The translations under genes were made by a program, and so were the position numbers. Below are positions 1,942 through 60,259 of a DNA stretch of 64,000 nucleotides, one piece after another. The stretch is from Acidobacteriota bacterium. GTDB taxonomy: Bacteria > Acidobacteriota > Blastocatellia > RBC074. The number at the start of each line of letters is the position of its first letter. Position 1 is the first letter of the stretch. The stretch spans positions 10,242 through 74,241 of the forward strand of contig JAJVID010000004.1 of assembly GCA_022072205.1 (NCBI GenBank). The letters run 5' to 3'. Under the pieces are notes generated by a model that was given only the letters and a program-made list of their open reading frames with translations, had not been told where the DNA came from and ran no database searches.

Positions 1942-2045
1942 TCCATCCGGTTAATTGTCGCCCGACGCCGTCAGCCGCGCCCGGTCACTTGCGGCAATGG
2001 GAAATCCCTGTTCCCAATGCCGGAGGTTCGTGGTTGGAAAAAGTT

Positions 2046-3983
2046 TCATCGCTCCTTGCCAATCGCCTCGCCGATCACACCACCAATCGCCTTCAGCAAT
2101 CTCTCGGCGTTGTAAGGCTTCGGCAGAAATGTCTTGACGCCCAACTCGGCGGCTTCCGCGGCCCGCTCGCCTTCAGCCAGCCCGCTGCTGGCGATGATCC
2201 TGACCTGCGGGTTGATCTTCTGCAACTCGCGAATCATTGCCGGGCCGTCCATCTGCGGCATCATCATATCGGTCAGCACCGCCTCGATCTCGTCCTGATG
2301 CGCAGTGTAAAGCGTTACGGCCTCGGCCCCTTCGCGCGCCACGAGCACGCGGTAGCCGAATGCTTCCAGAGTCGTTCTGGTGATTTCACGAACAGACGCT
2401 TCATCGTCCACCACCAGAATCGTCTCGCCGTGACCGGCGGGCAGATTGGAAAGGGCTGCGGCGGCTTGCGCCGTTTGCGCCGAGGCGATGGCCGGAAGGT
2501 AGATTCTGAATTGGGTCCCCCGGCCTGGCTCGCTGTAGACGTTGACGAACCCGCCGTGGCTTTTCACTATGCCTTGCACGGTCGAAAGCCCAAGCCCCGT
2601 GCCCTTGCCCTGTTCTTTCGTGGTGAAGAACGGGTCGAAGATTCGATCCAGAACTCCCGGCGGGATTCCCGTGCCCGTGTCCGTGACGCTGATGAGCGCA
2701 TACGGCCCCGGCCTGGCTTCGTGATTCATTCGCGCGTAATGCTCGTCGAAGAAGACGGTCTCCGCCGCGATGGTCAGCGCGCCGCCCTCTGGCATCGCGT
2801 CGCGGGCGTTGACGCAGAGGTTCATCAGCGCCTGGTGCAACTGCGTTGGGTCGCCGCTGATGGTCGCCAGGTCGGGCGGCAGCGAGTGTTTGATCGTTAT
2901 GTTTTTGGGAAAGGTTTCGGCGAGAAGTTTGGCGATCTCCTTGATCAGATGTTTGGGTTGAAGCGTGATCCGCTGGCCTTCGACTCCGCCTCTGGCGAAC
3001 GAAAGCACCTGTTTGATCAGATCGCCGCCGCGTTCCGCGCTCTGCCGGATGACTTCGAGCATCCGCTGGCTGCTCTCGTCCGTGAGTCTCATCTGCAACA
3101 ATTGAACTCCCGTGGTGATCGGCGAGAGGATGTTATTGAGGTCGTGCGCGATGCCGCTGGCCAGCGTGCCGATGCTCTCCAGCCGCTGCGCGCGCAGGAA
3201 CTGGGCTTCGAGCCTTTTTCGCTCCGTGATGTCGGTGTTGATGGCGAGGTAGGATTTTGGCTGCCCGTTCGCGTCGCGCACCAGCGTCCAGCGGCATTCA
3301 GCGACTACTTCCTTGCCACCCTTTGTGGCTTGCCGCAATTCACCGCTCCATTCCCCTTGCTCGATCGCCGCGCGCTTCGCATCTTCAAACTGTGAAAAGT
3401 CGCCGCGATAGATCAGGTCTTTGATGTCGCGCCCGGCCGCCTCTTCCGCCGTCCAGCCATAGATGCGTTCGGCGCCCTGGTTCCAGAAGAGGATGCGGTC
3501 GTCCAGGCCGCGGACGAGGATGGCGTCCCGCGCGTAATTGAGCAAAGCGGCTTGTTCGATCAATTTCTCTTCCGCTCGTTTGCGTTCAGTGATGTCGCGC
3601 AGGATCACGGTGAAGAGCTTCTGCCCGTTCGCTTCGATTTGCGAGATCGAAGCCTCGATCGGAAACTCTTCGCCGTTGGCCCGCAAGCCATACACAGCTC
3701 CCAATGATCCCATCGTGCGTTTGGTAACTTGCGTTTGGCCGAATTCCCTGATGCGGCGCCGGTGAGCGTGGCGGAATCTTTCGGGAATAAAGTGATCGAG
3801 CGGTAGTCCTAAAGCCTCTTCGGCGGAGCAGCCGAACATCTTTTCGGCCGCCGCATTGAAAAGCACGATGCGTTGCGCGCCGTCAACCGTGACGATGGCG
3901 TCCATCGCCGATTCGATGATCCAGGCTAGAGCTTCCTTGTCGAATGCCTGCTGCATCTGACAGTCTCCTTGGATAATGGCCAC
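2046..3983 (-). CDS. Cytoplasmic hybrid sensor histidine kinase: two PAS domains, HisKA, HATPase_c and a C-terminal receiver
   Basis: PAS-like repeats ([17 protein letters not shown] linkers), the H-box [14 protein letters not shown]-box DTGTGI/GLGLS and a C-terminal receiver ([13 protein letters not shown]...). There is no TM segment. The more likely start is the ATG near 3958, which has an AAGGAG RBS. Confidence 0.9.
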
Positions 3984-4041
3984 GTAACGTAACGAATTTA
4001 TTCGCTACGTCACGTAACGAATAAATTCGTTACTACGTGGC
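3979..4041. repeat. Palindromic repeat element family A, copy 1 (CCACGTAACGTAACGAATTTATTCG...CGAATAAATTCGTTACTACGTGG)
   Basis: Near-perfect inverted repeat of about 25-nt arms, seen directly, lying immediately upstream of the kinase start. Related ends (CCACGTAG...CTACGTGG, AACGAATAA) recur at 5887-5946 and 40676-40838. Confidence 0.7.
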
Positions 4042-4102
4042 GCGCGATAATGATCCGAATCTCATTCTGTAGCTGTGTCGAGTCTCTTGAGGAAGGAATA
4101 AT

Positions 4103-4303
4103 CTACCAGACCGCCCGCAAATTGTAGAGGTTTGAAGGCGAGGGCGCGGTTGGCGCGCACAATGCGTGAATCGAGCGATTCACGCAGATGCCGTCTTCAA
4201 TCGCGTCGAGGAGCGCCTCCCAGGCCGGAGGCGGCGCATCCTCGCCCGCTTGCGGTGACGGCGGTACAGGCAGCGGGTCTTTCTCGTTCATGGCCGTTTT
4301 CAA
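4103..4303 (-). CDS. Possible small proline-rich ORF between the response regulator and kinase genes (doubtful)
   Basis: A 66-aa ORF whose start overlaps the upstream RR stop (ATGA). No recognisable domain, and its composition could be a GC artefact. Confidence 0.15.
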
Positions 4304-5751
4304 CCAGGCGCATCAGCGCCACTTCCTTCGAGTTTCTTCAAACGATAGCGCAACTGGTCCCGCGAAATGCCGAGCAGTTCCGCCGCCCGCGTTTGGTTGC
4401 CGCTGCTGCGCTTCATCGCCTGCTCCACCAGGCTCATCTCCACCGATTCTAGCTGAACTCCTTCGGGCGGTAGACGGAAAAGTTCGACCAGAGTAGCTCT
4501 CGTGACTGCCTGACCGCGCTCGGTCGCAGCCGGCGCTTTGGCCGGCTCTTTCGTCTGTGGCCCGAACTGCGCTCCGGGCGTGACGCCGCGCGGCAGCCAG
4601 GCGCCGGTGATCAGGTCGTAGTCTTCGAGGGTCATCGCCCGCTCGATCACATTTCGCAACTCGCGGACATTGCCCGGCCACGGATACTGCCGGAAAATCT
4701 CGGCCACCTCCGGCGACAGCCCGGCAATGCGTTTTCTCAGTTTTTCATTGAAGTTGTTGATGTAGTAATCGGCGAGCAGCAACACGTCATCGCCGCGTTC
4801 GCGCAGCGGGGGCAGATCAATCTGAATCACCGAAAGGCGGTAGTAAAGATCGAGCCTGAATTTTCCGGCTTCGCTTTCGCTTTTGAGGTCGCGGTTGGAG
4901 GCGGCGATTATCCGCACGTCGAGCGGAATGTCTTTCAACCCGCCGACGCGCCGGAACGCGCCCTCTTCGAGCACGCGCAGCAATTTTGCCTGCAAGCCGA
5001 TCTCCAACTCGCCGATTTCGTCCAGAAAGACGGTCCCCCCTTCGGCCTGCTCGAACAATCCTTCTTTGCGCCCCTTGGCGTCGGTGAAGGCGCCTTTTTC
5101 ATAGCCGAACAATTCGCTCTCGATCAGCGTCGCGGGGATCGCCGCGCAGTTGATGGCGACGAACGGACGGTCGGCGCGCCGCGAGCCGTAGTGAACGGCT
5201 TTGGCGACCAGGTCTTTGCCCGTCCCGCTCTCGCCCTGCAGCAGCACCGACGAGGCTTCGCTCTCGGCGACTTTGCGTGCGAGTTGAATCATCTTCTTCA
5301 TCGCCGGAGACTGGCCGATGATCTGGTCGAAGCTGAATTCACGCGCCCGCTCGCGGCGCATCTGGTGGACCTCTTTACGCAGCCTGCCGGCCTCGATGCC
5401 GTTGCGGATCGTGACCTGAAGCTCGTTGAGGTTGATCGGCTTGCCGATGAAATCGTAAGCGCCGCCGCGCAAGGCCGCGAGCGTGTCTTCGACGAGCACA
5501 TTGGCTGTGATCATAATCACCACGGCCTGCGGCTGGCGGTTCTTGATCTCCTTGAGCGCATCCAGACCCGAACCGTCGGGCAGATTGATGTCCAACAACA
5601 CTGCCACCGGGTGATCCGACTCGAACGAATCGAGCGCGCCAGCGACTGTGCCCGCCTCGATCGGCTCGTAGTCCCATCCGCGCAAGGCCTCATTGAGCGT
5701 CCAGCGGATCATCGGCTCGTCATCAACGATCAGAATCTTTTCCTTTGCCAT
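4300..5751 (-). CDS. Sigma-54-dependent Fis-family response regulator (NtrC-like enhancer-binding protein)
   Basis: Receiver domain ([15 protein letters not shown]-box [13 protein letters not shown]). AAA+ sigma54 activator with Walker [15 protein letters not shown]-type [15 protein letters not shown] and ASNRDL. C-terminal Fis HTH ([18 protein letters not shown]). Confidence 0.9.
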
Positions 5752-5886
5752 AACGTCAGGATCTCACCTCACTCACTTACGTTGCGGTGATTCGATTCCT
5801 AATAAGCAATTATCTTGCCGCGTAGGCAAAATGGGAAATTTGAAAAGAGTCGTTCGGGTTGCAAGCGATGTCCTGAAACGATGAAG

Positions 5887-5946
5887 CCCCCACGTAGCAA
5901 CGACTTTAGTCGTCACGTCATGACTAACGTCGTCACTACGTGGGGA
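5887..5946. repeat. Palindromic repeat element family A, copy 2 (CCCCACGTAGCAACGACTTTAGTCGTCACG / CGTCATGACTAACGTCGTCACTACGTGGGG)
   Basis: About 60-bp imperfect palindrome in the divergent intergenic region between the NtrC-like regulator and the decaheme cytochrome gene. It shares the CCACGTAG..CTACGTGG termini with the other copies. Confidence 0.65.
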
Positions 5947-6372
5947 GACGCAGAGATGGCAGACCAGTCAGAAAAATGTGATTTTCCGCAATCGTCGGGA
6001 AGTATTCCGCAGCTGAGAGGCTTAGCTGAGAGTTCGATCCGGCGTGATCCCGTTGAATTCGATGAACGCCAGCGAGATTCGTTGAGTCTCTTCGACGAAG
6101 ACCTCTATCGGACTGCGCGGAACAACGATTGCATTGATGTTAGATGGCTGCGCGGAATGGCGCTGGCTCTGCCGGTTGGCTGTGCGCTGGATCACGGTTA
6201 CGCGTGTTGCGCATCACGGTCTGTTCGCAACCTCTCAGTCAGGATTGAATAGCAACTCTTTTGCAGCAGTAACACAGTTTGGTTTGTCCGTAACCAGCGG
6301 CGAAACATTCCGCAATCAACCTGAAAGTTACGCTAACACGCTGTAATTTTTCGCAATCAAAAGGAGCAGCTT

Positions 6373-7461
6373 ATGCGAACTCTGAAGGTAGGTCTGGTGA
6401 TAGTTTTCTGTCTGGCGGCGCTGACGCCTGCAATCTCGACGCGAGTCGCGGCGTTGACCACGACGCTGGCTCAGGGCAAAGCGTCGCAGGAAAAGTCCGG
6501 CAAGGCTAAAGACGCCGGGCAATCGAAGCAAACTCCGCCGGCGCCAGCCAGCCAGTTCGTCGGCAGCGAATCCTGCGCCGAATGCCACGGCGCCGAAGCG
6601 ACGCATTACGCGCTGACGGCGCACAGCAAAACCAGGCTCGGCAACGGCCCGGTTGACCAGCGCGGCTGCGAAGCCTGCCACGGCCCGGCTAAAGGTCACG
6701 TGGACTTTTACCTGCAAATCCAAAAATTGAACGAAGCCGGCAAGGAAGACGAGGCCACGACGCTGATGAACGACGCAGCCAAAGCCGCCGCCGCCAAAAT
6801 GCTTTCGTTCAAGGAAATGGCGCCGGCTGAAGCTTCGGCGACCTGTCTGAAATGCCACGAAGGCTCGCAAGGCCGCAGCGAGGAGCGGTTCAATTTCCGC
6901 CGCAGCGAACATTTCCGTCACGGCCTGTCGTGCAACGATTGCCATTCTTCGCACGAGCCGAAGCGGACGGAATTTTTGCTGAAGGCGACCGAGCCGAACA
7001 TGTGCTACCAGTGCCACGCCGACCAGAAGGCGTCGTTCGCCAAACCGTTCCACCACAAAGTTCCCGAAGGCGGAATGAAGTGTTCCGATTGCCACAACCA
7101 GCACGGCAGTTTTACGAGCAAGTCGCTGCGCAATTCGGCGGGCGGCGATTCGGCCTGCGTCAAATGCCACGCCGACAAACAGGGGCCGTTCATTTACGAG
7201 CACGCGCCAGTCAAAGTCGAAGGCTGCCAGGCGTGCCACACGCCGCACGGTTCGACCAATGCGAAATTGCTGACACGCAACATCGTCAAATTCCTCTGTC
7301 TCGAATGCCACTCGAACACGCCTGGCATTCCCGACACGGACGGCACGGGCGTGGGCGTGGGCACGCCCAGCTTTCACGACATCAACAACCCGCGCTACGC
7401 CAACTGCACTACGTGCCACTTTGAAATTCACGGGTCGAACAAAGACCCGTTCTTCCGCTAA
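6373..7461 (+). CDS. Periplasmic decaheme c-type cytochrome, MtrA/MtoA/PioA/DmsE family (porin-cytochrome conduit component)
   Basis: Signal peptide ([20 protein letters not shown]) and 10 CXXCH motifs in 362 aa: CAECH, CEACH, CLKCH, CNDCH, CYQCH, CSDCH, CVKCH, CQACH, CLECH, CTTCH. The size and heme count match MtrA/MtoA. RBS AAAGGAG upstream. Confidence 0.8.
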
Positions 7462-7462
7462 A

Positions 7463-7539
7463 CGAGTCAGTACCGCGAGCGGTAGCGAGCGCCGCTCTAA
7501 GAGCAAACCCGCTCGCTACCGCTCGCGGTACTGACTCGA
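7463..7539 (+). other. Long intercistronic stem-loop (about 28-bp arms) between the decaheme cytochrome and porin genes
   Basis: CGAGTCAGTACCGCGAGCGGTAGCGAGCG ... CGCTCGCTACCGCTCGCGGTACTGACTCG, seen directly. It ends 16 nt before the porin start codon and its RBS. Confidence 0.6.
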
Positions 7540-7554
7540 AAAAGGAGGCTGAAG

Positions 7555-9687
7555 ATGAAAAACAGCAATCAATCAACGCTTGCGCGGCTCTCCCGGACTT
7601 TGGCGAGAGCGGCGATGTCAGCCTTGCTGATGACGTTCGGTTCGGTCGTGTTCGCCCAAAGCAGCGTCGAGAAGAGCGAAACCAGCCAACAGGCCAGAGC
7701 GCCTGAAAGCGAACTGGAACGCGCCAAAGCCATTGTTACCAAACCGAATGAAAACAAACCCGCCAAGCCGGAGACAGGTCGGACGTGGGGCGTTTACTCG
7801 ACCACAACTACGCTTGAGATTGGCCATCGCTTCGTTGACACGGATGGCAGCCGCGACCGCTATCTTTCGGACGTGAACGTGCGCGACGGTTTCCGCGTGC
7901 TCGAATATTCGACGGACATGCGCGCTCAACCCGGCGCGGGGTTGCTCTTTGATTTCATGAAAGCCGACGTGTCGAACGCCGGCGGAGATCAAAGCCAGAC
8001 TTTCTCGCTGCGGATGGACAAAACTCGCGCGTACCGATTCGATGGCAATGTGCGGCGCTTTAATTACTACCGCTCGCCGGGTCCGAACTTCGCGCTCAAC
8101 TTCCGCAACCACGATCTGCGCCAGCAAATTTCTGACTTCCACCTGAAGCTCTTCCCGCAACGCGCCGTGCGGATCAACGCCGGTTACGGACGCAGCCTGG
8201 CCAAAGGACGTTTCAATCCCAGCTACAGTTTTGAGCGCGACTTGTTCCAGTTGCTGGGCGAATCGCGCTGGGAGGCGAACGACTACCGGCTCGGACTTGA
8301 CGCGACTTATCGCCGGTGGGATTTTGGCGTCGAGCAGCTTTACCGCAATTTCCGCAACGACCCGCAGATCACTTCCACGACGGGCGTCAACCTCGGTCTC
8401 AACCCGACCGACGCTGGCCGGATCAGCTTTCTGGATCGTGACACGCCGTTGCGCGCGCGCTCGCTGGTCACGCGGGCGAGCGTTCGCGGCTCGATTGCCG
8501 AACGGCTGCACGTTGTGCTGCGCGGTTTGCACGACGATGAGAGGATGCGCGCGCCTTACCTGGAAACGACCAGAGGCACGGCCAGCAACAACGCCAACAT
8601 CATTTCGCGCGCGCTGACTGGCGATGGCGTCGTCGAAAGGCCAGGCGCGGTCGTTGACGCCGGCCTCACTTTCGACATCAACAGGAATTTCTCGCTGAGC
8701 GACACATTCCGTTACACGTCTTTCCGCATCGCCGGAGACGTGGCCACGCTTCAAACCAGCGTTCAGCAGACGGGAACAGCCGCGCCTCAAACGATCATCA
8801 CGACGACCGCCGGCGACCGGTTGACGAAGTGGAATTCCTATTGGAACACGCTCTCGCTGGACATGAACTTCGGGCGGAAGTTTTCTGCCAATCTGGGCTG
8901 GCGCGCGATGCAGCGCGAGATCACGCTGGATGGCTTGTACACATCGCGGACATCTACTTCGACCACAGTCACTACTCTGGCTGATGATGAAAGCGAATCG
9001 GTAGACACGCATGCCTTCGTCGGCGGATTCCGCGTGCGCCCAACCGACCGGTTCAGCTTCATCTTCGACGTGGAGCACGGGACGAACAACAACGCCTTCG
9101 TGCGCATCAACCCGCTCGAATTCACCCGCTTCCGCGCGCGGGCGCAGGCGCAGATCACCGACAAACTCGCCTTCATCGGCGCGTTCACCTCGACCGACCG
9201 TCTCAACCCGACGCCGCAGGTCGAAAACGAATCGGACGCCAGAAGCTACACGGTGGCGGTCAACTGGGAGCCGAAATCGAGGGTTTACGTTGACGTCGGT
9301 TACGATTACCACGACCTGTTTTCGACGGCCAACATTCGCTACTTTCTGGCCAGCAATCAGGAGCGGCGCGGCAATTCGCTTTATTACGCGCGGCTGAATT
9401 CGGTCTTCGCCAACACGCGGTTCGGGCTGACCAACCGGCTCGACCTGCTGATGGTTTACTACTACGTGATGGATCGCGGCGCGCCGTCGGTCACAATCGG
9501 AGCGAACGATTTTGTTTCGGCGTATCCGCTGCGCAGGCATAACCCGGAAGTCCGGCTGGCCTATCGCTTCAGCAATCACGTAACCGGCAACCTGAGCTAT
9601 CGGCATTACAGTTACAACGAGCGTGAATTCGCCGTGCAGGATTACCGAGCGAACATTCTGACGACCAGTTTGCGCTTCACTTTCTAA
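7555..9687 (+). CDS. Outer-membrane beta-barrel porin of an MtrB/MtoB/PioB-like porin-cytochrome complex
   Basis: 710 aa with a signal peptide ending AQS and an amphipathic Y/R/N/T-rich composition typical of an outer-membrane barrel. The C-terminus ends ...LTTSLRFTF. It lies immediately downstream of the decaheme cytochrome with its own RBS (AAAAAGGAGG). The antisense 662-aa ORF 7618..9606 has no such features. Confidence 0.7.
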   Translation: MKNSNQSTLARLSRTLARAAMSALLMTFGSVVFAQSSVEKSETSQQARAPESELERAKAIVTKPNENKPAKPETGRTWGVYSTTTTLEIGHRFVDTDGSRDRYLSDVNVRDGFRVLEYSTDMRAQPGAGLLFDFMKADVSNAGGDQSQTFSLRMDKTRAYRFDGNVRRFNYYRSPGPNFALNFRNHDLRQQISDFHLKLFPQRAVRINAGYGRSLAKGRFNPSYSFERDLFQLLGESRWEANDYRLGLDATYRRWDFGVEQLYRNFRNDPQITSTTGVNLGLNPTDAGRISFLDRDTPLRARSLVTRASVRGSIAERLHVVLRGLHDDERMRAPYLETTRGTASNNANIISRALTGDGVVERPGAVVDAGLTFDINRNFSLSDTFRYTSFRIAGDVATLQTSVQQTGTAAPQTIITTTAGDRLTKWNSYWNTLSLDMNFGRKFSANLGWRAMQREITLDGLYTSRTSTSTTVTTLADDESESVDTHAFVGGFRVRPTDRFSFIFDVEHGTNNNAFVRINPLEFTRFRARAQAQITDKLAFIGAFTSTDRLNPTPQVENESDARSYTVAVNWEPKSRVYVDVGYDYHDLFSTANIRYFLASNQERRGNSLYYARLNSVFANTRFGLTNRLDLLMVYYYVMDRGAPSVTIGANDFVSAYPLRRHNPEVRLAYRFSNHVTGNLSYRHYSYNEREFAVQDYRANILTTSLRFTF

Positions 9688-9689
9688 AC

Positions 9690-9754
9690 AGTACCGCGCG
9701 CGTCAGCAAGCGGCTGATCGATGAGACATCCGCTTGCTGACGCGCGCGGTACTT
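9690..9754 (+). other. Second intercistronic stem-loop (CAGTACCGCGCGCGTCAGCAAGCGG...CCGCTTGCTGACGCGCGCGGTACT) between the porin and monoheme cytochrome genes
   Basis: About 24-bp perfect arms, seen directly. It shares the AGTACCGCG core with the 7463-7539 hairpin. Confidence 0.6.
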
Positions 9755-9774
9755 CATCGAAGGAGAAAACATCC

Positions 9775-10128
9775 ATGAATTCGTTTGCCAAAAGAACAGT
9801 GGCCGCCATCGTCGCCACGACGGTTTTGACATTCTCGCTTTCTGCGTTGATGTCCTCGCCCGCCGCCCTCGCTTTTCAAAGCGTGAAGAGTCTTTACCAA
9901 TCGAAATGCGCTGTCTGCCACGGAAATGACGGCGCCGCCAACACTGCCAAAGGAAAAGAACTGAAAGTCCGCAGCTTCCGCTCGGAAGAGTTCAAGAAGA
10001 TGACGGACGCCAAAGCGATGGAAGTCCTGATGAAAGGCAAGGGCAAGATGGAAGGATACGAAAAGACAATTGGCAAGGAGAAATTGGAGCAATTGCTCGC
10101 TTACTGCCGCGAGTTATCGAATAAGTAG
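9775..10128 (+). CDS. Monoheme class I c-type cytochrome (MtoD-like periplasmic electron shuttle)
   Basis: Signal peptide, a single CAVCH motif and Met-rich C-terminal half. The likely start is the ATG at 9775 after the GAAGGAG RBS; the track's 9721 start lies inside the hairpin. Confidence 0.75.
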   Translation: MNSFAKRTVAAIVATTVLTFSLSALMSSPAALAFQSVKSLYQSKCAVCHGNDGAANTAKGKELKVRSFRSEEFKKMTDAKAMEVLMKGKGKMEGYEKTIGKEKLEQLLAYCRELSNK

Positions 10129-10149
10129 TGCCCAAGCGGAGGAAATACA

Positions 10150-10779
10150 ATGACGGGGAATACTACAATCCTGGTAGCTGTGATCCTGTTCAGCATAGCT
10201 CTGATCGCCTGGCTGGTTTTGCGCCCGTCAATCACCGCCACGCGCGCCGGCAAGATGCTGGCGTTCGTGGCGCTGCTGATCTTTCCGGTCCTGGCCGGAG
10301 GGATGGGCGTGAGCATGCAGCTTGAACATTCCAAGACGACCCAGTTTTGCCTCTCCTGCCACGTGATGGAGGATTACGGCAAAAGCCTGCGTGTGGACGA
10401 CCGGAGCTTCATTCCGGCGACCCATTTCCAATACAACCTCGTACCGCGCGACCAGGCCTGCTTCACCTGCCACACCGATTACACAATGTTCGGCGACTTC
10501 AACGCCAAGCTGCGCGGGTTGAAGCACGTTTACGCTTACTACGTGGGAACTCCGTCGCAGCCGATCAAACTCTACCAGCCGTATAACAACCGCGAATGCC
10601 TGCATTGCCATCTCGGCGCGCGCGGTTTTGAAGAATCGGAAGCGCACAACAAAGACCCGCAGGCGATGTCACGGATGAAGCTGAACCAACTGAGCTGCTC
10701 GACCAGCGAGTGCCACAACATCGTGCATAACGTCCAGCAGTTGAAAGAAGCTACATTCTGGAAGGAGCCGTCCAAATGA
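10150..10779 (+). CDS. NapC/NirT/CymA-family membrane-anchored tetraheme cytochrome c (quinol dehydrogenase)
   Basis: N-terminal TM anchor (ILVAVILFSIALIAWLVL) and the motifs CLSCH, CFTCH, CLHCH, plus a fourth atypical site CSTSECH (CX4CH). About 200 aa, as in CymA/NapC. GGAGGA RBS. Confidence 0.8.
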   Translation: MTGNTTILVAVILFSIALIAWLVLRPSITATRAGKMLAFVALLIFPVLAGGMGVSMQLEHSKTTQFCLSCHVMEDYGKSLRVDDRSFIPATHFQYNLVPRDQACFTCHTDYTMFGDFNAKLRGLKHVYAYYVGTPSQPIKLYQPYNNRECLHCHLGARGFEESEAHNKDPQAMSRMKLNQLSCSTSECHNIVHNVQQLKEATFWKEPSK

Positions 10780-11116: not shown

Positions 11117-11926
11117 TCACAAAATCCCTTTCGCCAGCCCGTGGCTGGCGATGAAGGTGATGCGGCGGCGCGCGAGCCTGATCAATTCGTCGTGGCTGCA
11201 TGGCATCGCGCGGTACTTGGGCAACAGGCCTGCTGGGCTGCCCGCAGCCGTCCTACCGCTTTCCACCAGCACTGGAATCTCCGCGTGTTCCTGGCTCGCG
11301 CGAAGGTTTTTGAGCAGCGATTCCAGCAGCGCCGGACCGACATCAACCACCGCCAGATCGTGCGCGTCGCGGCTAACGTAGTTCCATTCTTCGGGAAACA
11401 GGGCGCAGGTGATCTCGGCCTCCTGCGGATCGAAGGCCGCCTGCCATTGCGAAATCCGCTCCGCCGAGTCGCTGAGGATGAGCGCGCGCGGCCGGCTGAT
11501 TGCGGCCGGCTCGCGGCCTTGCCGCTTCAAGTTGATGGCCTGATCGAGCGCGAAATGCAACTCATCCAGGTTGATCGGCTTGCCGATGAAATCGTCGGCG
11601 CCGCCGCGCAAAGCCGAGACCGCATTCTCAAACAACGTCTCCGCCGTCACCATAATCACGGCTGTCTGCGGCTGGCGGCGCTTGATCTCGCGCAGCAGAT
11701 CGAGGCCGTAACTGTCGGGCAGGTTAATATCAAGCAACACCGCCGCGGGGCAGGTGGCATCGAGGGTTGCCAGCGCCTCCGCGCCCGTCCCGGCTTCAAT
11801 CGTCTCGTAGCCCGAGCCGCGCAACGCCTCCCCCACCACCAACCGGATCGCCGGCTCATCATCTACGATCAACACTTTGTTCCACGAACGACTGCTCATC
11901 TTTACCACCTTCTCTCCGAAATTCAT
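11117..11926 (-). CDS. Response regulator: receiver domain plus a C-terminal receiver-like/unknown domain
   Basis: [63 protein letters not shown] is a paralogue of the NtrC-like receiver at 4300..5751. The start ATG at 11926-11924 overlaps the upstream Usp stop (ATGA). There is no DNA-binding output domain. Confidence 0.75.
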   Translation of the reverse strand: MNFGEKVVKMSSRSWNKVLIVDDEPAIRLVVGEALRGSGYETIEAGTGAEALATLDATCPAAVLLDINLPDSYGLDLLREIKRRQPQTAVIMVTAETLFENAVSALRGGADDFIGKPINLDELHFALDQAINLKRQGREPAAISRPRALILSDSAERISQWQAAFDPQEAEITCALFPEEWNYVSRDAHDLAVVDVGPALLESLLKNLRASQEHAEIPVLVESGRTAAGSPAGLLPKYRAMPCSHDELIRLARRRITFIASHGLAKGIL

Positions 11927-12795
11927 TTCCGTTCGCGCGCCACTTCGACCGAACAATGCGCGCGCGCGGCTACAGCGGAGGAAACGCTGCCGATCAGAAA
12001 GCGTTCGAGCCGGCCCATTCCTTTCGCGCCGGCGAAGATGCAATCGGCGCCCCAGCTTTCAGCTTCGGCCACCAGCAATCGCTTCGGGTCTTCTTCTTTC
12101 ACCACTACGGCGGTCTTCAACCCGGCGGCGTTGAGCCGGCTGACGGCTTCGTCAATCATCTTTTGGACTCTGGCCTTTTCTTCGGTGATCCATTGGGTGA
12201 TCGGGCCGACCATGTGTTGTGAAGTGAGTTGAGGCATCGCCCACGTGGCGTTGACGATGCGGACTTCGCTTCCCGCCGGCCATTTGCGCGCGGCGACGGT
12301 GGCCACCGCCGCTTCAGCGCCTTTCGATCCATCAACGCCGACGATCAACCGGACTGGCGTATCGGGTTCTTCGACGCGGCCACGCGCCACGCGCACCGAA
12401 CAATGCGCCTCGTGCAACACTCTCTGCGAGACGCTGCCGAAAAAGAACTGTCCGAGCGCCGTTCGCCCGTGCGATCCGACGACGATCAGATCGGCTCCCC
12501 ACTCATCGGCCTTCTCGATGATCACCGTAGCCGGAGAGCCTGCGCCCAATTCGGACTTCACGTCCCAGCCCGGCTCCATCGAACCCAAACGCAGGCCGCC
12601 ACGCCGCGACAGCGCCAGAAACTCCTCATCTCTGCCAATGTGTTCGACAAGCTCAAGCCCGGACGGCGGCGGCAGCCAGTTTTCGAGAACCGACAGAACT
12701 TTGATCTGCGCATTTGCAGGCAGCCCCGCTCTTCGCAAATCGTCCAGCGCGGCGTCGGCGCATTCCGAGCCATCGTAAGCAACCAGGATTTTCAT
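11923..12795 (-). CDS. Tandem universal stress protein (two UspA domains)
   Basis: MKILVAYDGSECADAAL... with ...VVGSHGRTALGQFFFGSVSQRVLHEAHCSVRVAR, and a second ...IVGVDGSKGAEAA... with ...GAKGMGRLERFLIGSVSSAVAARAHCSVEVAR. Confidence 0.85.
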   Translation of the reverse strand: MKILVAYDGSECADAALDDLRRAGLPANAQIKVLSVLENWLPPPSGLELVEHIGRDEEFLALSRRGGLRLGSMEPGWDVKSELGAGSPATVIIEKADEWGADLIVVGSHGRTALGQFFFGSVSQRVLHEAHCSVRVARGRVEEPDTPVRLIVGVDGSKGAEAAVATVAARKWPAGSEVRIVNATWAMPQLTSQHMVGPITQWITEEKARVQKMIDEAVSRLNAAGLKTAVVVKEEDPKRLLVAEAESWGADCIFAGAKGMGRLERFLIGSVSSAVAARAHCSVEVARERK

Positions 12796-12846
12796 ACCAG
12801 CCCCCCTTGTTGTTGCAGCCGCCAAATCGGTTGCGATTCGGCTCGC

Positions 12847-13197
12847 TCAATCTCCGGCTTTGCCTTCGCAGACCACACAACGTGCGGCGTAGGGCAACGC
12901 CTCAAGACGTTTGGGCGAGATCGGACCGCCGCAGACTTCGCAGACGCCGTATTCGCCTTTGTCCAGCCGCGCCAGCGTTTTTTCGATCTGCGCCATCTCG
13001 GCGCGGATCGAACGGTCGAGAGCGGCGAGCACTTCATCGTTTTCGCGCTCCACCGCCTGCTCTTCAAAATCGGCGTCGAGCGGTTTGTTGGCGCGACGAG
13101 AGTCGCTGGTGATTTTTTCCAGACGGCCTCGTATCTCCGCGTATCGCTCCGCCAGTTTCTGTCGAACAGCCAATTGTTGTTTCACAACTGCCTCCAT
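12847..13197 (-). CDS. DksA/TraR-family C4 zinc-finger protein
   Basis: Coiled-coil N-terminus and C-terminal CEVCGGPISPKRLEALPYAARCVVCEG. The start is probably MEAVVKQQ at 13197. Confidence 0.75.
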   Translation of the reverse strand: MEAVVKQQLAVRQKLAERYAEIRGRLEKITSDSRRANKPLDADFEEQAVERENDEVLAALDRSIRAEMAQIEKTLARLDKGEYGVCEVCGGPISPKRLEALPYAARCVVCEGKAGD

Positions 13198-13219
13198 CAA
13201 CACTTTGAAGCCCGGATGA

Positions 13220-13483
13220 TCAGACCGCCGGTCGCCAAACGACCGATTCCGGCTGCGACGCCTGATGGTCGCTGTAAGCCGGCACGGCCAGAACCGGGCA
13301 TTTCGCATTTCGGACTATTCGCTCGGTCGTGCTGCCGCGCAGCGCGTCCAGAAAACCTTGATGCCCTTGCGTAGCCATCACGATGAGATCGGCGCGGCAT
13401 TCGTCCGCCGCATGCAGAATCTGCCGCTCGACGTCCCCTTGTTTGTAGGTCTTGCTCCACCGCCACATCTCGCGTTCGGCCAT
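13220..13483 (-). pseudogene. Universal stress protein C-terminal fragment (truncated Usp)
   Basis: The 87-aa ORF matches only the C-terminal half of a Usp domain (ADLIVMATQGHQGFLDALRGSTTERIVRNAKCPVLAV). No N-terminal half is found in any frame upstream. Confidence 0.45.
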
Positions 13484-13963
13484 AATGAAACCAAACCTGT
13501 GAGTCTGTTTGCGGCATTGTTTTCACCTCAACCCCAGCGCAGCGATTCTATAGTTGCGATCGAATGAAACGGCAACCTGTGTGCCATTGAGATGATCAAC
13601 GCCAAACCCCGACTTACGACGCGCAAACCTCCGGGCGTCGCGTAAAGTTCCCCGGTTGGCGGCGCCTGATCGCGCAAAAACACACCGTGCGCGCGCGCTG
13701 GCTGGATTTTCATCCGCGTAAGGCGCAAAACCCGTCGGTTGCGCGGCGTCATAGGCAATCCCCATTTTGCCGAGTATGACAAGCCGCAAACGAAGCGCGC
13801 TGCGTGAAATTGCGCGAGAGATCGGGCCGGGCGCGGAAAATACCGCGATCAGTGAGCCATGACCGACCGCACATTCGCCACGAAATATGGGTCGTAGGCT
13901 GCCTGCTCTGCCTGGCTTGCAAGTTGCAGCGCAGCGACACAGACTCACTCAGGGAGAAAGAGC

Positions 13964-15226: not shown

Positions 15227-15712
15227 TTATTTCACCTTCACCTCAATCTGCTTCGGCTTCGACTCTTCGCGCTTCGGCATGGTCACGCGCAACATACCGT
15301 CCTTGAACTCGGCGTTGATCTTGCTCGTGTCCACGAAGCTCGGCAGCGTGAAGCTGCGGGTGAAATCGCCATAGCGGCGTTCGAGCCGGTGATAGTTCTC
15401 GCGCTTGGTCTCTTCGGAGAATTTGCGCTCGCCGTGAATCGTCAGGATATTGTTTTCAACCGAGACCTTCACGTCTTCCTTCTTCACTTCGGGCAATTCG
15501 GCCTTGACCACAATCTCGTTGTCGGTCTCGTAGATGTCGCAGGCCGGCGACCACGCCGCGAGCGACCAGTTTTCCTCTCCGAATCTTGCGAAAGGATCGA
15601 GGCCTTCTCCGAAAAAGCGCCTCATCTGCTCCCCGAAGTTGCGGAAAGGATCGAAGATCAACCCTTCACGGGAACCCGAAGGAGCCAGCGCTGCGCCTGA
15701 TTTATTTGCCAT
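15227..15712 (-). CDS. Hsp20/alpha-crystallin family small heat-shock protein
   Basis: Alpha-crystallin domain: [39 protein letters not shown]...[11 protein letters not shown]. Confidence 0.9.
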
Positions 15713-16127
15713 AACTTTTACCTCCGTTTCTTGTGATGATATTCATTCCACCAAATGGAAAAGCAAGCTTTGTGCCGCCGGAAATGATTGATCGAAGGCT
15801 TTCATTATCAGGGTTTTTCGTAATCGAAGAGGGAATGAGCCGGCTCCGGAGCGGGCGTTTTTCCCCTTCGCTCCGGGTAACTTCACGCAGAGCGATGGTG
15901 ATCAACTATGTCTGTTTCCCATCTGCGTCTGTTCAACATTGATGGCGCGAGGCGAGATATTCAACGCGCCCACCCAGCGACGAGAGTTTCTGATAATCAG
16001 TCTCAGGAACCGCCACGCCCAGCTCCTTATCCAACGCGATCACGAAATTGAGAAAGTCCATTTTAGATATCAGGGCAATCACTACTCCACGCCACACATT
16101 GCCGGATTTTCCACTACTGCCTCCTGA

Positions 16128-18302: not shown

Positions 18303-19112
18303 CTATTCAGCGCCGAGCCGTTTCCGCAACGCCTCTTTGACCTTCACACCTCTGAAGTAAGCCTCATCGGCCTGTTTGCGCACGCTTTCGAGATTGAACG
18401 CGTGCCATTTCACCCGGGCTTCGCCGAGCGTCTCTTCCGCGAGCTTGAGGTCATTCTCTTCCACGCCGAGCGGCCAATTCCGCCTCCGACCTTCGGCCAA
18501 CAGGAGCCGCGCCCAATTGACCACGGCGTCGGCGCGTTGCAGCGCCAGCATCGTCTCTTTGGCGCGCGCAGGGATTTCAGGCCGCGGCTGGATGAAGTTG
18601 ATCGAGTCGTGGCACTGGGCGCAGAGGTTGGCGGTTTCGGTCGGCGAGTAGATCACCTTCGTCGCCATATGCTCGTGGCAGGTGTTGCAGCTCGGACCCA
18701 GGCCGATGCCTTTCAGCCGCTGGTAATGCGCGCTCTGCACGAACGAACTCACGACGTTTTGATGACAGGCGTTGCAGGTCTCGGGCTGATTCTTCCAGTG
18801 AAGGCGGCTCTGCGGATTCGACGAGCGCAGGACGCCGACGTGCGCCTTCTCTTTGTCTTTCGCGGACGGTTCACCGCCATGACATTTCTCGCAACTGACG
18901 CCGCGCTCTTCGTGGCTCGAAAGCTGCCATTCCAGGTAACGGCTGCTTACGCCGAGCGGCTCGAGCAACTGCGAATGGCAGTTGACGCAGTTGTTGTTTT
19001 TGTACGAGGGCTTGGGCTGCTGCGCCGCGCCGATCTGATTCGCGCTCACAAACCAGAACATTCCAGCGGCCAACAGCAAGGTCAGCAAACATAGTTTTCT
19101 TCGGCGGTTCAT
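18303..19112 (-). CDS. Membrane-anchored pentaheme c-type cytochrome
   Basis: N-terminal TM/signal-anchor and five CXXCH motifs: CVNCH, CEKCH, CNACH, CNTCH, CAQCH. It sits 18 nt upstream of the phosphotransferase gene. Confidence 0.8.
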   Translation of the reverse strand: MNRRRKLCLLTLLLAAGMFWFVSANQIGAAQQPKPSYKNNNCVNCHSQLLEPLGVSSRYLEWQLSSHEERGVSCEKCHGGEPSAKDKEKAHVGVLRSSNPQSRLHWKNQPETCNACHQNVVSSFVQSAHYQRLKGIGLGPSCNTCHEHMATKVIYSPTETANLCAQCHDSINFIQPRPEIPARAKETMLALQRADAVVNWARLLLAEGRRRNWPLGVEENDLKLAEETLGEARVKWHAFNLESVRKQADEAYFRGVKVKEALRKRLGAE

Positions 19113-19369
19113 ATTCGCTCCTCACGGAATCGGTTACATCAACCAGAACTGAGCCTCCAATCCTGTGTTTTTCCCTGCGCATCCTTGCGCGGCCGGCGCG
19201 GAAATTTTCTCATCACCGGCATTGAAACCCCTAAACTTCAAACTCCAGCCTCGGATTGAGCAAGCTTTGTGCCGCGCTGATCGAGATCTCTTCACGGCAC
19301 GCTGGTTGCTCCCTCTGAATCAGCGGACAGTTCCTTTATCACTCACAGCCGTTTGCAGATGCGTGCGAC

Positions 19370-19485: not shown

Positions 19486-19905
19486 ATGATCAATCAATTG
19501 GGAGAACGAGAATCGCGCGCGCTTTTGGCGCAGGGAGCGTTGGGGCGGCTCGGCTGCTCCGATAAAGGCAAGCCATACGTCGTGCCGGTCTATTATCTCT
19601 TCGATGACGATTGCGTCTACGCGCATTCGCTGTCAGGTCACAAGATTGACATCTTGCGCGCGAACCCGAACGCCTGTCTTCAGGTTGATGAGATTGAGGA
19701 CGATTATCATTGGCGGAGCGTGATTGCCTTCGGATATTACGAAGAGGTCAACGAAGAGGCTGAGCGCGAGCGCGTTCTGGCCAGCCTGTTCAGACGGTTG
19801 CCGCATCTGACGCCGGTCGAATCGCGCGCTAAAGACAGCGCGCAGCAGATCATAGTCATCCGGCTTCGGATAACCGAGATCACCGGAGTCTACGAGAGTT
19901 GGTGA
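19486..19905 (+). CDS. Pyridoxamine 5'-phosphate oxidase-like FMN-binding split-barrel protein
   Basis: 139 aa with GRLGCSDKGKPYVVPVYY and ACLQVDE, typical of the PNPOx/NimA-like family. Confidence 0.7.
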   Translation: MINQLGERESRALLAQGALGRLGCSDKGKPYVVPVYYLFDDDCVYAHSLSGHKIDILRANPNACLQVDEIEDDYHWRSVIAFGYYEEVNEEAERERVLASLFRRLPHLTPVESRAKDSAQQIIVIRLRITEITGVYESW

Positions 19906-19924: not shown

Positions 19925-22600
<2,676 letters not shown>

Positions 22601-22887
22601 CGTTGTCGCCTTACTTCATTCCGCCTTCCAGTCAGTTTGGTTTCTTCCTTGTTGTCTCCTCACCCGCAACGCTCCGCCCTCGAGACGTTGCAACTCTCAA
22701 GCCAGTTCAGCTTCTCTTCGTTTAGGCCGGGTTGATGGGCAGGTTTGTGATCTCCTCTGCGCAAAGTTACTCACCCTCCTGTGCAAGAGCACGCAGCCTC
22801 GAACCGATTGAGACAGCCAGATGCTCATCCGGCGTGGCTCAGGTCGGCATAGTGATTGCAACCTTTTGTAGCAAGGAGGAAAAAGTC

Positions 22888-36215: not shown

Positions 36216-36386
36216 CTCTTCCTCCCCTGGTTAAGTGATTGCAGTCTCTCCTCAATGGCGCAAGACATATGCCATCCCGTGTTGGGCGGGCCTTCTCAAC
36301 ATTTCGGCCTGCCACGCGGGCCGCAATCGCGGGCATTCAGGCGCTGTGCGGGGGAACTTACGCAACGTGGGAACGATTACTCAGCC

Positions 36387-38963
<2,577 letters not shown>

Positions 38964-39235
38964 TGATTGCGATCTGAATCGGCAACCGGCGTGCCGGACA
39001 AATTTCTCAGCGCCTGCAAAACGCCGTCCGGATTTTCCGCCAAAGATGGCGGAAAGTTACCCACTATCGTTGGACGGGATGCGAAAAAACACTCTGTGTT
39101 CACAGCCGGGGAAGCGCAATCCCTATGACCAGCATGAAATCACACGCGAATTTTCTGGCTGTCAAAATCGGAACGCCAATTGCGAAACAACGCGCCGGCA
39201 TTGTGAATGGGAAACTTATTTGAGATGTTCGATAT

Positions 39236-40675: not shown

Positions 40676-40838
40676 CCACGTAGTAACGAATAATGGTCTT
40701 TGAGTAAATAACGCAACACCAGCGTAGGGGCGGGTTTTCCCCGCCCAGGCCCCTCAATAGCGGATCCGGGCGGGGAAAACCCGCCCCTACGCTGGTGTTG
40801 TAGTTAATTTTCAAACGCCATTATTCGTTACTACCTGG
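40676..40838. repeat. Composite palindromic element: family-A-like termini (CCACGTAGTAACGAATAATGG / CCATTATTCGTTACTACCTGG) enclosing a GC-rich hairpin
   Basis: Outer inverted repeats seen directly. The inner palindrome 40724-40800 is CAACACCAGCGTAGGGGCGGGTTTTCCCCGCCC...GGGCGGGGAAAACCCGCCCCTACGCTGGTGTTG. It lies between the OMF and adaptor genes of the efflux operon. Confidence 0.75.
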
Positions 40839-40854: not shown

Positions 40855-42048
40855 ATGAAGACGAAATTTGCCATTCTGGCGGCGGTCGGATTGTTGATGA
40901 TGACGGCCGCGTCGTGCGGAAAAAAGCCGGAAGTCGCGGCGGAGAAACCTCCTGTCGTCAAAGGCGCGCGCGTCGAGCGAGTTTCAATCTCGCCGATTGA
41001 GAATTACTACGAAGCGACGGGCACAGTGCGATCAAAGACGACGACCGTCTTGTCGTCAAAGATTATGGGAACGGTCATCAGCTTGCGCGCGCGCGAAGGC
41101 GATAAGGTCAGCGCCGGTCAGGTCCTGATCGAGATTGATAATCGCGACGCGAACGCGCAACTGCAGAAAGCCGACGCCGGTTTGCGGCAGGCGCAGGAAG
41201 GCCTGGCTGAAGCCGAGCAGGCGACGGGCGCCGCGAAATCGGCGCAGGCCGCCGCCGAGGCCAACAAGCGGTTGGCCGATTCGACCTACGCCCGCTACCA
41301 GGCGCTGTTCGAGCGAAAATCCATCAGCCCGCTGGAATTCGATGAAGTGAAAGCCCGACAGGAGATGGCCGAAGCCGAAGCCCGGCGAGCCGCCGATACG
41401 CTGAAGATGCTGGCGGCGAAGAGGCGACAGGCGTTGGCGCAGATAGATCAAGCCAGGGCCGAGATCGCCAACGCGCAGGTCCAGGTCAGCTATGCGCGCA
41501 TCGTTTCTCCGATCAGCGGCGTGGTGGTGGCGAAGCAGACGGAGGTCGGTTCGACGGCGACGCCGGGGACGCCATTGTTGACGATTGAAGACAGCGCGCG
41601 TTACCGGCTCGAAGTCGCCGTCGAGGAATCACAACTCGGCAAAATCCGAAGAGGTGAGCGGGCGCGTGTGCGAATTGACGCGCTCGGCGCGGACGATCTG
41701 GAAGGTAGCGTTTCTGAAATCACTCCCGCCGCCGATCCGATGAGCCGCAGTTACACGGTAAAGATTGATCTGCCCGCGCGCCAAAGCTTGCGCTCCGGTT
41801 TGTATGGCGCAGCCCGTTTCGCCAGCGGTCAGAAGCAGGCGATCCTGATTCCGCAGAAGGCCGTGACGGTGCGCGGTCAGTTGGCCGGCGTTTTCGTGGT
41901 TGACGACGCAGGCGTCGCCCGGTTGCGCCTCGTCAAAACCGGCAAGAGTTATGGCGAAAACATCGAGGCGCTGTCGGGTTTGAACGATGGCGAACGGATC
42001 GTGGTTGACGGCGTGACGAACGTGAATGACGGAGTGAAAGTTCAATGA
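40855..42048 (+). CDS. Efflux RND periplasmic adaptor subunit (HlyD/MFP family)
   Basis: Lipoprotein-like N-terminus (AASCG), long coiled-coil hairpin, beta-barrel/MP domains ([24 protein letters not shown]). Confidence 0.85.
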
Positions 42049-45000: not shown

Positions 45001-45356
45001 GCAATTCGATCATCCTGGTGGACTTCGTCGAACTGCGCCTGAAACAGGGAATGCCGCTTGCAGAAGCAGTCATTGACGCTGGCGCCGTGCGTTTTCGCCC
45101 AATGATGTTGACAGCGGCGGCGGTAGTGGCCGGCGCGTTCATTATTCTGTTCGATCCGATCTTTCAGGGCTTGGCGATTTCGCTGATGGCCGGAGAAATC
45201 GCCTCGCTGCTGTTGTCACGAATGACCGTTCCGATTCTCTATTACCTGAGCGAGCGCCGAAAGCGCGCCTCGCCAGAGGCGATGGGCGATTTTTCAGAAC
45301 CAACGGATTCAGTTACGGAAAATCACGCGGTCACTGAGGTCGAATTGGCCGATTGA
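42045..45356 (+). CDS. Efflux RND permease (AcrB/CzcA superfamily), with an in-frame heptamer-repeat segment
   Basis: 1103 aa with a 12-TM RND architecture ([14 protein letters not shown]..., [12 protein letters not shown]). The start overlaps the adaptor stop. The [13 protein letters not shown] segment is encoded by (GCAATCC)5 at 42919-42956. Confidence 0.9.
42919..42956. repeat. Tandem heptamer array (GCAATCC)x5 inside the RND permease gene
   Basis: Same heptamer as the palindromic arms in glgP at 20612-20718, seen directly. Confidence 0.8.
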
Positions 45357-58302: not shown

Positions 58303-58327
58303 CCGGCGGTTGAATCTTCGAATCTCA

Positions 58328-60259
<1,932 letters not shown>

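Follow-up and report, generated by a model that had tools for sequence, protein, structure and literature searches.

A stretch of 64,000 nucleotides from an Acidobacteriota bacterium (GTDB lineage Blastocatellia; assembly GCA_022072205.1, contig JAJVID010000004.1; hereafter the window) was analyzed for the regulation of a gene cluster resembling the Mto/Mtr conduits of extracellular electron transfer (EET). On the minus strand, the window carries a hybrid histidine kinase gene (2046..3983) and the gene of an NtrC-family sigma-54 enhancer-binding response regulator (4300..5751, hereafter the activator), and divergent from both, on the plus strand, runs a decahaem-led, Mto/Mtr-like operon from 6373 onward (6373..10779). 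The 621-bp region between the activator and mtoA, the first gene of this operon, is the main subject of this study. An earlier reading, made from the sequence alone, had placed every gene that it named correctly, as judged by open reading frame (ORF) positions and Pfam domains, including the divergent orientation of the Mto-like cluster. Briefly, 37 window ORFs were scanned non-exhaustively against Pfam, curated NCBIfam cut-offs were used for equivalog and family calls, and the comparison relied on related metagenomic loci labelled L003-L165, of which L081 represents the same organism (99-100% identity). With moderate confidence, we interpret the region as a case of divergent sigma-54 control, comprising one promoter box for the activator, another for the mtoA-mtoB-cytochrome c-cymA operon and a set of enhancer-like repeats shared by the two.

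The order of the four operon genes is kept in about 30 metagenomic relatives. The first encodes a decahaem cytochrome (mtoA, 6373..7461, plus strand; 362 amino acids, aa, with 10 CXXCH motifs and a signal peptide), which passes the TIGR03508 model of DmsE-family decahaem cytochromes (244.6 bits, cut-off 192.2). It is followed on the same strand by the gene of a porin-like protein (7555..9687; 710 aa, signal peptide, C-terminal ...RFTF), whose place after the decahaem gene is conserved among relatives, and by the genes of a monohaem cytochrome c (9721..10128) and a NapC/NirT-like cytochrome (cymA, 10150..10779). The activator shows the domain order REC-Sigma54_activat-AAA_lid-HTH_8 in Pfam, with a receiver (Response_reg, E 1.6e-23, residues 6-115) whose phospho-acceptor Asp54 lies within VLLDINLPD, an AAA+ domain (PF00158, Sigma54_activat, E 7.7e-70) and a C-terminal Fis-type helix-turn-helix (HTH_8, E 3.4e-15, residues 434-474). 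Its sigma-54 interaction loop reads GAFTDA, as it does in the orthologues, and this is a tolerated variant of the GAFTGA loop (PMC4641369). Against the named NCBIfam equivalogs, the activator stays below cut-off (best AtoC with 443.6 bits, cut-off 714, and NtrC with 410, cut-off 558.6), and its best relatives come from Blastocatellia/Pyrinomonadaceae metagenome-assembled genomes (MAGs), which places the host among the uncultured acidobacteria of this group rather than with iron-oxidising proteobacteria. It is the sole sigma-54 activator among the 37 window ORFs covered by the non-exhaustive Pfam scan; rpoN is not encoded within the 64-kb window.

To locate promoters, a sigma-54 matrix trained on 35 boxes from other loci of the lineage was used, with ranks given among the approximately 128,000 window positions. 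Two sites in the divergent region rank 10th and 14th. The former is a candidate promoter of the activator gene (CGGCAAGATAATTGCT, 5805..5820, minus strand), located 53 nt before the ATG, and in L163 and L164 its GG-N10-GC and TTGCT elements are kept while the spacers vary (GATAA, GACAA, AGCAA). Because the box is conserved upstream of the activator in both loci, sigma-54 autoregulation is argued. A sigma-70 promoter for the same gene (TTCCCA-17-GATAAT, with TATAAT in L003-L006) was considered and rejected, since the closest orthologues keep GG-N10-GC and not the -10 hexamer. The 14th-ranking site is a candidate promoter of the Mto-like operon (CGGAACAACGATTGCA, 6118..6133, plus strand), situated 239 nt before the mtoA ATG. 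More than 20 metagenomic relatives whose MtoA is 79-86% identical share the pattern GGAA[C/T]-N5-TTGC, and in L096-L098 the spacer differs with the distance between GG and TTGC unchanged. Conservation upstream of mtoA begins exactly at this box and continues for about 115 nt into the leader, and more distant mto clusters have GG-N10-GC boxes at -190 to -234, where approximately 0.2 per locus would be expected by chance. Sigma-54 control of the operon, as it had been proposed, is plausible on the grounds of this -24/-12-type box conserved in more than 20 loci, but the box lies at 6118-6133 and not at the weak match originally singled out (TGGCGCTGGCTCTGC, 6158-6172). That string is present; however, the relatives have TCAC at the position of the -12 GC, and in the matrix scan it scores at background (rank 373, score -0.1).

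This discarded match, as well as an inverted repeat at 6205-6231 that had been noted earlier and is indeed present, falls within a conserved leader (6134..6250, plus strand; 79% mean identity). The leader is conserved across L082, L085, L094, L103 and L106 and contains the dyad GTTGCGAA-N10-TTCGCAAC. It is regarded as non-coding because of a frameshifting indel between relatives. A small ORF (5815/5956..6252) was rejected as a gene, given a G+C content at third codon positions of 0.53, no homologue in the compared loci and the frameshifting indel in its conserved part. No Rfam family matched the leader at threshold (the best hit was a chance match to the palindrome, E 0.54), and a search for RNA structure gave a single-sequence fold z-score of 0.13 and compensatory changes in only 3 of 34 pairs. 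In L085 and L103, the mto box is preceded by an 85-aa N-terminal fragment of a universal stress protein (Usp).

Between the two divergent boxes sits a candidate enhancer (upstream activating sequence, 5977..6012), in which two TTCCGCA half-sites are 21 nt apart (minus strand GCGGAATACTTCCCGACGATTGCGGAAAAT); it consists of direct repeats of the families D1 and D3, and L163 and L164 have kept it ahead of their activator genes. Two more TT(C/T)CGCAATC copies of family D1 (6301-6317 and 6342-6358, plus strand) are found just before the mtoA ribosome-binding site, and a homologous motif cluster occurs in L087, L088, L092, L093, L095 and others. The core GATTGCG(G)AAW is clustered, including the palindrome AATTCCGCATTCATGCGGAAAA, in mto leaders of relatives without an adjacent activator, and in L163 and L165 it also accompanies the boxes that adjoin the activator orthologues. 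Of the 40 occurrences of the 9-mer, 7 fall no more than 250 nt from a box, a zone covering 6.9% of the sequence, which is an enrichment (p=0.018). When 7-mers upstream of boxes were tested in an unbiased way, homologous sequences confounded the outcome, and a strict regular expression for paired motifs returned few cases. The motif evidence for the candidate enhancer is, overall, suggestive but not decisive.

The divergent region lies in a neighborhood rich in sigma-54 boxes. In the window, five copies of the exact core GGCAC-N5-TTGC were counted where 0.76 would be expected (none of 100 shuffles reached five), each time upstream of a gene and in the correct orientation. A loose consensus allowing two mismatches showed no enrichment (28 found, 30 expected), so only the exact core is informative. 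On the minus strand, exact boxes precede the Hsp20 gene (15227..15712; box 15762..15777, core 15763-15776), which also has its box in L162 and L164, and the gene of a magnesium-type P-type ATPase (36387..38963; box 38981..38996, core 38982-38995). Two further boxes form a divergent pair (19259..19310), one before the gene of a 269-aa pentahaem cytochrome (18303..19112, minus strand; box 19259-19274, core 19260-19273) and the other before a PNPOx-like gene (19486..19905, plus strand; box 19295-19310, core 19296-19309). Weaker boxes (13913-13928, 22846-22859, 36260-36273) precede a phosphofructokinase gene, a Tll0287-like gene and a 208-aa ORF.

The fifth exact box (TGGCACACAGGTTGCC, 13571-13586, core 13572-13585) leads an operon on the minus strand (11117..13586), on the flank of the Mto-like cluster opposite to the activator. 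A DksA/TraR-UspA-receiver operon had been described here at 11117..13197, and its genes are present, but the operon starts further upstream, with a truncated Usp (13220..13483; 87 aa, matching only the C-terminal third of the Usp profile) at its head, followed by the DksA/TraR-like gene (12847..13197), a tandem Usp (11923..12795) and, at the end, the receiver gene (11117..11899). The claimed paralogy of this receiver with that of the activator is borne out (58% identity over 132 aa, E 4e-45), with either of them being only 30-32% identical to the receiver of the hybrid kinase. The product has no DNA-binding domain, in agreement with the earlier description as a receiver-only regulator, but it is a 260-aa tandem receiver, REC-REC', and not a single-domain protein. 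Its family is 260 aa long and 60-82% conserved over the full length. Although the second domain is not recognized by Pfam, it keeps the invariant Asp and the Lys-like positions, and the predicted fold (predicted local distance difference test score 76.7) comprises two (beta-alpha)5 receiver-like domains, with PleD as the best structural matches and both domains aligned. The likeness to PleD concerns its receiver stem of two domains; GGDEF or any other output is missing here. Homologues of the tandem receiver have their own GGCAC box in L089 and L161. Since the protein is box-led and carries, as its first receiver, a near-copy of the activator receiver, a putative role in phosphate competition or feedback is reasonable.

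The activator orthologues are surrounded by similar genes. In L163 (activator 88% identical), the activator gene is followed by an overlapping gene of a 380-aa PAS kinase and then by an exact box before Usp-MgtC. In L164 (85%), the activator is directly preceded by two divergent exact boxes, one for Usp and the other for Hsp20. The order in L165 (77%) is receiver, activator, exact box, Usp, Pyr_redox, PNPOx and a FixL-like hybrid kinase. In L003-L005 (69-72%), boxes precede genes for PNPOx (L003, L004), DksA/TraR-like, ATPase, cytochrome and ABC-Usp (L005) proteins, and in L006 (69%) a box precedes the gene of an unannotated 413-aa protein. Usp, Hsp20, PNPOx, P-type ATPase, tandem receiver and cytochromes therefore recur by exact boxes across Blastocatellia. 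The box-associated families are often near group-4 hydrogenase and glycogen phosphorylase genes. As a separate observation, in L162, L163 and L164 either the activator or the tandem receiver has a group-4 [NiFe]-hydrogenase-like cluster (Complex1_49kDa, Proton_antipo_M, NADHdh) next to it; such neighbors would fit an anaerobic programme.

An independent arrangement was found outside this group, in an Aminicenantes MAG (contig SOIA01000230.1, L007, positions 1-3747), where a kinase, an activator with the GAFTDA loop, the box TGGCACAAAGTTTGC, a 122-aa receiver, a 10-haem MtrA-like cytochrome and a porin-like protein follow each other on one strand. As this order is independent, the functional tie of the activator subfamily to MtrAB-like conduits gains weight. 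The box ends 14 nt before the receiver ATG, which suggests that the leader is very short or absent in this locus. The L007 receiver was also considered as a close paralogue of its activator and rejected, their identity being only 33%. Homologues of MtoA/PioA are already on record for Acidobacteria; in the literature, we found no report of a regulon of this kind nor of the regulation of these homologues.

The history of the locus can be followed from a gene remnant between the activator and hybrid kinase genes. Eight nucleotides past the activator stop codon starts a stub of a 380-aa Cys-rich PAS histidine kinase (4101..4291, minus strand; about 60 codons with an intact ATG, homologous part 4137-4288). 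It encodes the first ~50 residues of the kinase, is matched by tblastn with residues 4-54 of the L093 kinase and is 58% identical to the N-terminus of the L163 kinase. In L163, the intact 380-aa kinase gene overlaps the stop of the activator orthologue, forming an operon, and its product shares 68% identity over the full length with the kinase encoded beside mto in L093; such a Cys-rich single-PAS kinase, of 383 aa, is encoded divergently from mto in about 15 relatives. Activator, kinase and mto operon are therefore linked through three arrangements, namely activator with kinase (L163), kinase with mto (the ~15 relatives) and activator with stub and mto (the window). From these comparisons, the ancestral cognate kinase of the activator would be the 380-aa Cys-rich single-PAS kinase, here reduced to a stub.

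The segment with the activator and the stub is flanked by two copies of a dispersed palindromic repeat resembling repetitive extragenic palindromes, one at 3981..4041 (family member 4027-4039), overlapping the annotated GTG of the hybrid kinase, and the other at 5888..5945 (29-nt arms, 83% complementary; family member 5891-5942). A third intergenic site is located at 40677-40837, and the unit is about 60 nt long (CCACGTAG[T/C]AACGA...). The copy at 5888-5945 is the "family-A" palindrome that had been listed among the features of the divergent region; it exists, but as a member of a dispersed family found at three places in the window and not as a regulator site, and in L163 and L164 the homologous region ahead of the activator lacks it. 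Another rearrangement concerns the pentahaem cytochrome (261-270 aa), whose gene heads the mto operon in some relatives (L083 667-1452, L103 3981-4793) and is cut to a short 3' remnant in others (L085 3720-3800, L082 ~1060-1100). The window homologue, 48% identical to the L103/L083 gene, is relocated to 18303..19112, behind an exact sigma-54 box.

Given such rearrangements, the adjacency of activator and mto operon might itself be an accident, with the activator serving only the Usp/Hsp20/PNPOx stress genes and the mto box being served by another activator. Only in this organism are the two adjacent, dispersed palindromes enclose the segment, which also contains a gene stub, and the GGAAC of the mto box is unlike the GGCAC of the boxes beside the activator orthologues. 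We nevertheless consider an accident unlikely, in view of the ancestral partner kinase of the activator flanking mto in about 15 relatives and of the GATTGCGGAAW core being common to the activator upstream region and the mto leaders.

The hybrid kinase was examined as the possible sensor. It has the domain order PAS-PAS-HisKA-HATPase_c-REC (Pfam) and, as it contains no hydrophobic segment (maximum Kyte-Doolittle 19-residue mean 1.23), it is cytoplasmic, so the earlier description as a cytoplasmic double-PAS hybrid kinase agrees with both domain order and hydropathy. The annotated GTG start falls within the palindromic repeat and the database copy begins at Met10 (636 aa), which is likely the true start (position 3956). 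The best matches of PAS1 are the solved haem-PAS domains of FixL and DosP (E 1.7e-16, aligned over the whole length), and its His73 aligns to the FixL proximal histidine and is invariant in all 120 homologues. The kinase is thus predicted to carry a FixL-like haem-type PAS, and the suggested redox or O2 sensing is plausible in this respect for PAS1; for PAS2, no haem-type match was obtained. The NCBIfam FixL model was not reached (166.8, cut-off 850), and no FixJ-type regulator was found near the kinase gene. Past the kinase, a P-type ATPase gene runs on the minus strand from about position 1944 off the window start (motifs DKTGT, TGD and GDGVND), as had been noted; nothing convincing as a sigma-54 box was seen between the two genes.

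The sequence-only reading had taken this kinase as the cognate sensor of the activator, with the mto operon driven from 6158-6172 and the flank receiver acting as a phosphate sink. The adjacency of kinase and activator on one strand, the haem-PAS type of PAS1 and the paralogous receivers are in line with it, as is L165, where a homologue of the hybrid kinase lies within the activator-adjacent sigma-54 operon, although this is a looser link. However, the closest kinase orthologues (74-81% identity, full length) have ATPase, Usp, Tll0287 and receiver genes as neighbors, but no activator, and the closest activator orthologue (88%) is translationally coupled to a different kinase. Moreover, the stub and a repeat element lie between the two genes, and the site at 6158-6172, ranking 373rd, is without a conserved -12 GC. 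A conserved activator-kinase pair was at first deduced from the kinases beside the L003-L006 activators, and this was dropped, as these are only 60% identical to the hybrid kinase and have another type of PAS1, and closer orthologues are elsewhere. Taken as a whole, this model is improbable. Because the closest kinase orthologues are not linked to an activator and only L165 helps the pairing, we infer it with caution; the hybrid kinase is probably not the original partner of the activator, but it is plausible as a present-day or additional input.

Returning to divergent sigma-54 control, several observations have to be weighed against it. The mto box has an A where C is usual after GG (GGAAC). 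As for the shared motif, its 8-mer half-site occurs in 26% of box upstream regions versus 12% of background windows, which is a modest enrichment, and in most relatives the motif lies downstream of the box, within the leader. For an enhancer such a position is unusual, and a repressor or a second promoter could explain it as well. The adjacency of activator and mto operon is found only in L081, the same organism; about 25 relatives, their MtoA 62-86% identical, lack it, and it is thus lineage-specific. Many activators are usual in Acidobacteria, and another one could serve the mto box. On the side of the sensor, the pairing of kinase and activator is not conserved among orthologues, a glycine in PAS1 is aligned with the distal Arg of FixL, and no histidine phosphotransfer (HPt) protein for the hybrid kinase was noticed in the non-exhaustive scan of window proteins. 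Finally, the 710-aa porin-like protein has no MtrB/PioB match in Pfam or NCBIfam.

GGAAC is also a common -35 core of promoters of extracytoplasmic function (ECF) sigma factors, and the conserved block could thus be an ECF-type -35, an operator or a part of the leader, with a sigma-70-family promoter nearer mtoA among the TTCCGCAATC repeats, but despite the conservation of the repeats by the ribosome-binding site and a long 239-nt leader that shows little sign of RNA structure, this is very doubtful. TTGC stays at the exact GG-N10-GC spacing where the spacer varies (L096-L098), and GGAAC is not followed by a conserved -10 element at a distance of 16-17 nt. Moreover, the plus strand of the region yielded no sigma-70-like promoter, and the neighborhood is saturated with sigma-54 boxes.

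Under the preferred interpretation of divergent sigma-54 control, a mechanism can be outlined in which promoter activity, a protein binding the repeats, the phosphotransfer steps and a low-oxygen signal are what we infer from domain content, motifs, conservation and synteny, these being directly observed. The receiver of the activator would be phosphorylated, and the phosphorylated activator would oligomerise at GATTGCGGAAW-type sites and remodel sigma-54 RNA polymerase at its own promoter and at the mto promoter. It would also act at the exact GGCAC-N5-TTGC promoters of the Usp-DksA-Usp-tandem receiver operon and of the genes for Hsp20, the pentahaem cytochrome, the PNPOx-like protein and the magnesium-type ATPase. 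The gene content would correspond to a low-oxygen or energy-stress programme, with the outer-membrane conduit as an alternative electron outlet, and the tandem receiver may compete for phosphoryl groups and thereby exert negative feedback. From the comparison with relatives, the activator and the mto operon would be members of a single low-oxygen stress regulon.

The nearest described system is that of BccR (GSU0598) in Geobacter sulfurreducens, a REC-AAA+-HTH activator encoded divergently from the sigma-54-dependent cbcBA EET operon, with an extra response regulator (bioRxiv 10.1101/2021.04.15.440034). The two are alike in the domain architecture of the activator and in the divergent arrangement. 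In Geobacter, however, the target is an inner-membrane bc-type complex and the adjacency is conserved across the genus, whereas here the target is an outer-membrane MtoAB-type conduit and the adjacency is lineage-specific. Unlike BccR, the activator of the window also appears to govern a broad stress regulon. The regulatory kind is already known, and the sequence-only reading is partly supported, with its promoter, partner kinase, nature of the palindrome and conservation of the adjacency needing correction.

In terms of gene content, the operon corresponds to Sideroxydans MtoAB-MtoD-CymA and Shewanella MtrAB, since in each case a single operon combines a DmsE-family decahaem cytochrome with a large porin-like protein, a monohaem cytochrome c and a NapC/NirT-type cytochrome. 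It differs from them in that the porin-like protein lacks a match to the MtrB/PioB models and the cluster has no MtrC-type outer decahaem cytochrome; in addition, relatives add the pentahaem cytochrome as the first gene. The hybrid kinase resembles FixL and DosP in PAS1, which aligns over its full length with the proximal histidine conserved. In contrast to FixL, the likely partner is of NtrC and not FixJ type, a C-terminal receiver makes the kinase a hybrid and the distal Arg is unaligned; haem binding is a prediction.

The DosR regulon includes several Usp, an alpha-crystallin/Hsp20 protein, a phosphofructokinase, a P-type cation ATPase and a PNPOx-like flavoprotein, with haem-based kinase input. 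The putative regulon of the window is similar in gene content to that of Mycobacterium DosS/DosT-DosR, with a phosphofructokinase gene next door. Nevertheless, the regulator here is a sigma-54 enhancer-binding protein and not a NarL/LuxR-type protein that works at sigma-70 promoters, the sensor has a PAS domain instead of the GAF of DosS/DosT, and an outer-membrane conduit is added to the regulon together with multihaem cytochromes. The Blastocatellia, acidobacteria of soils, are known as aerobes. A wider, tentative possibility is that they run a DosR-like dormancy or low-oxygen regulon on a sigma-54 chassis, in which MtoAB, and in relatives also the neighboring group-4 hydrogenases, would serve as an emergency electron outlet, with kinases (Cys-rich PAS, FixL-like hybrid and others) exchanged between lineages by repeat-mediated recombination. 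If the preferred interpretation of divergent sigma-54 control is right, the promoter, the candidate enhancer and the named activator would offer a first concrete access to the regulation of MtoAB-type conduits outside Proteobacteria, and EET would be part of a low-oxygen survival programme in abundant uncultured soil Acidobacteria. The locus also illustrates how the sensor inputs to a conserved activator can be swapped via local rearrangement, and it calls for caution, as cognate pairs cannot be inferred from adjacency alone.

Two further observations concern other parts of the window. A formate-dehydrogenase-like molybdopterin oxidoreductase and the selenocysteine elongation factor SelB are encoded at 45447-48155 and 58310-60259. 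In addition, the heptamer ATCCGCA occurs in runs of three to four tandem copies at 20614-20635 (minus strand), 20686-20714 (plus strand) and 42922-42950 (plus strand), two of which are inversely oriented and less than 100 nt apart; the runs sit within long ORFs, namely a glycogen-phosphorylase-like gene and an ORF of 1103 aa (42045..45356).

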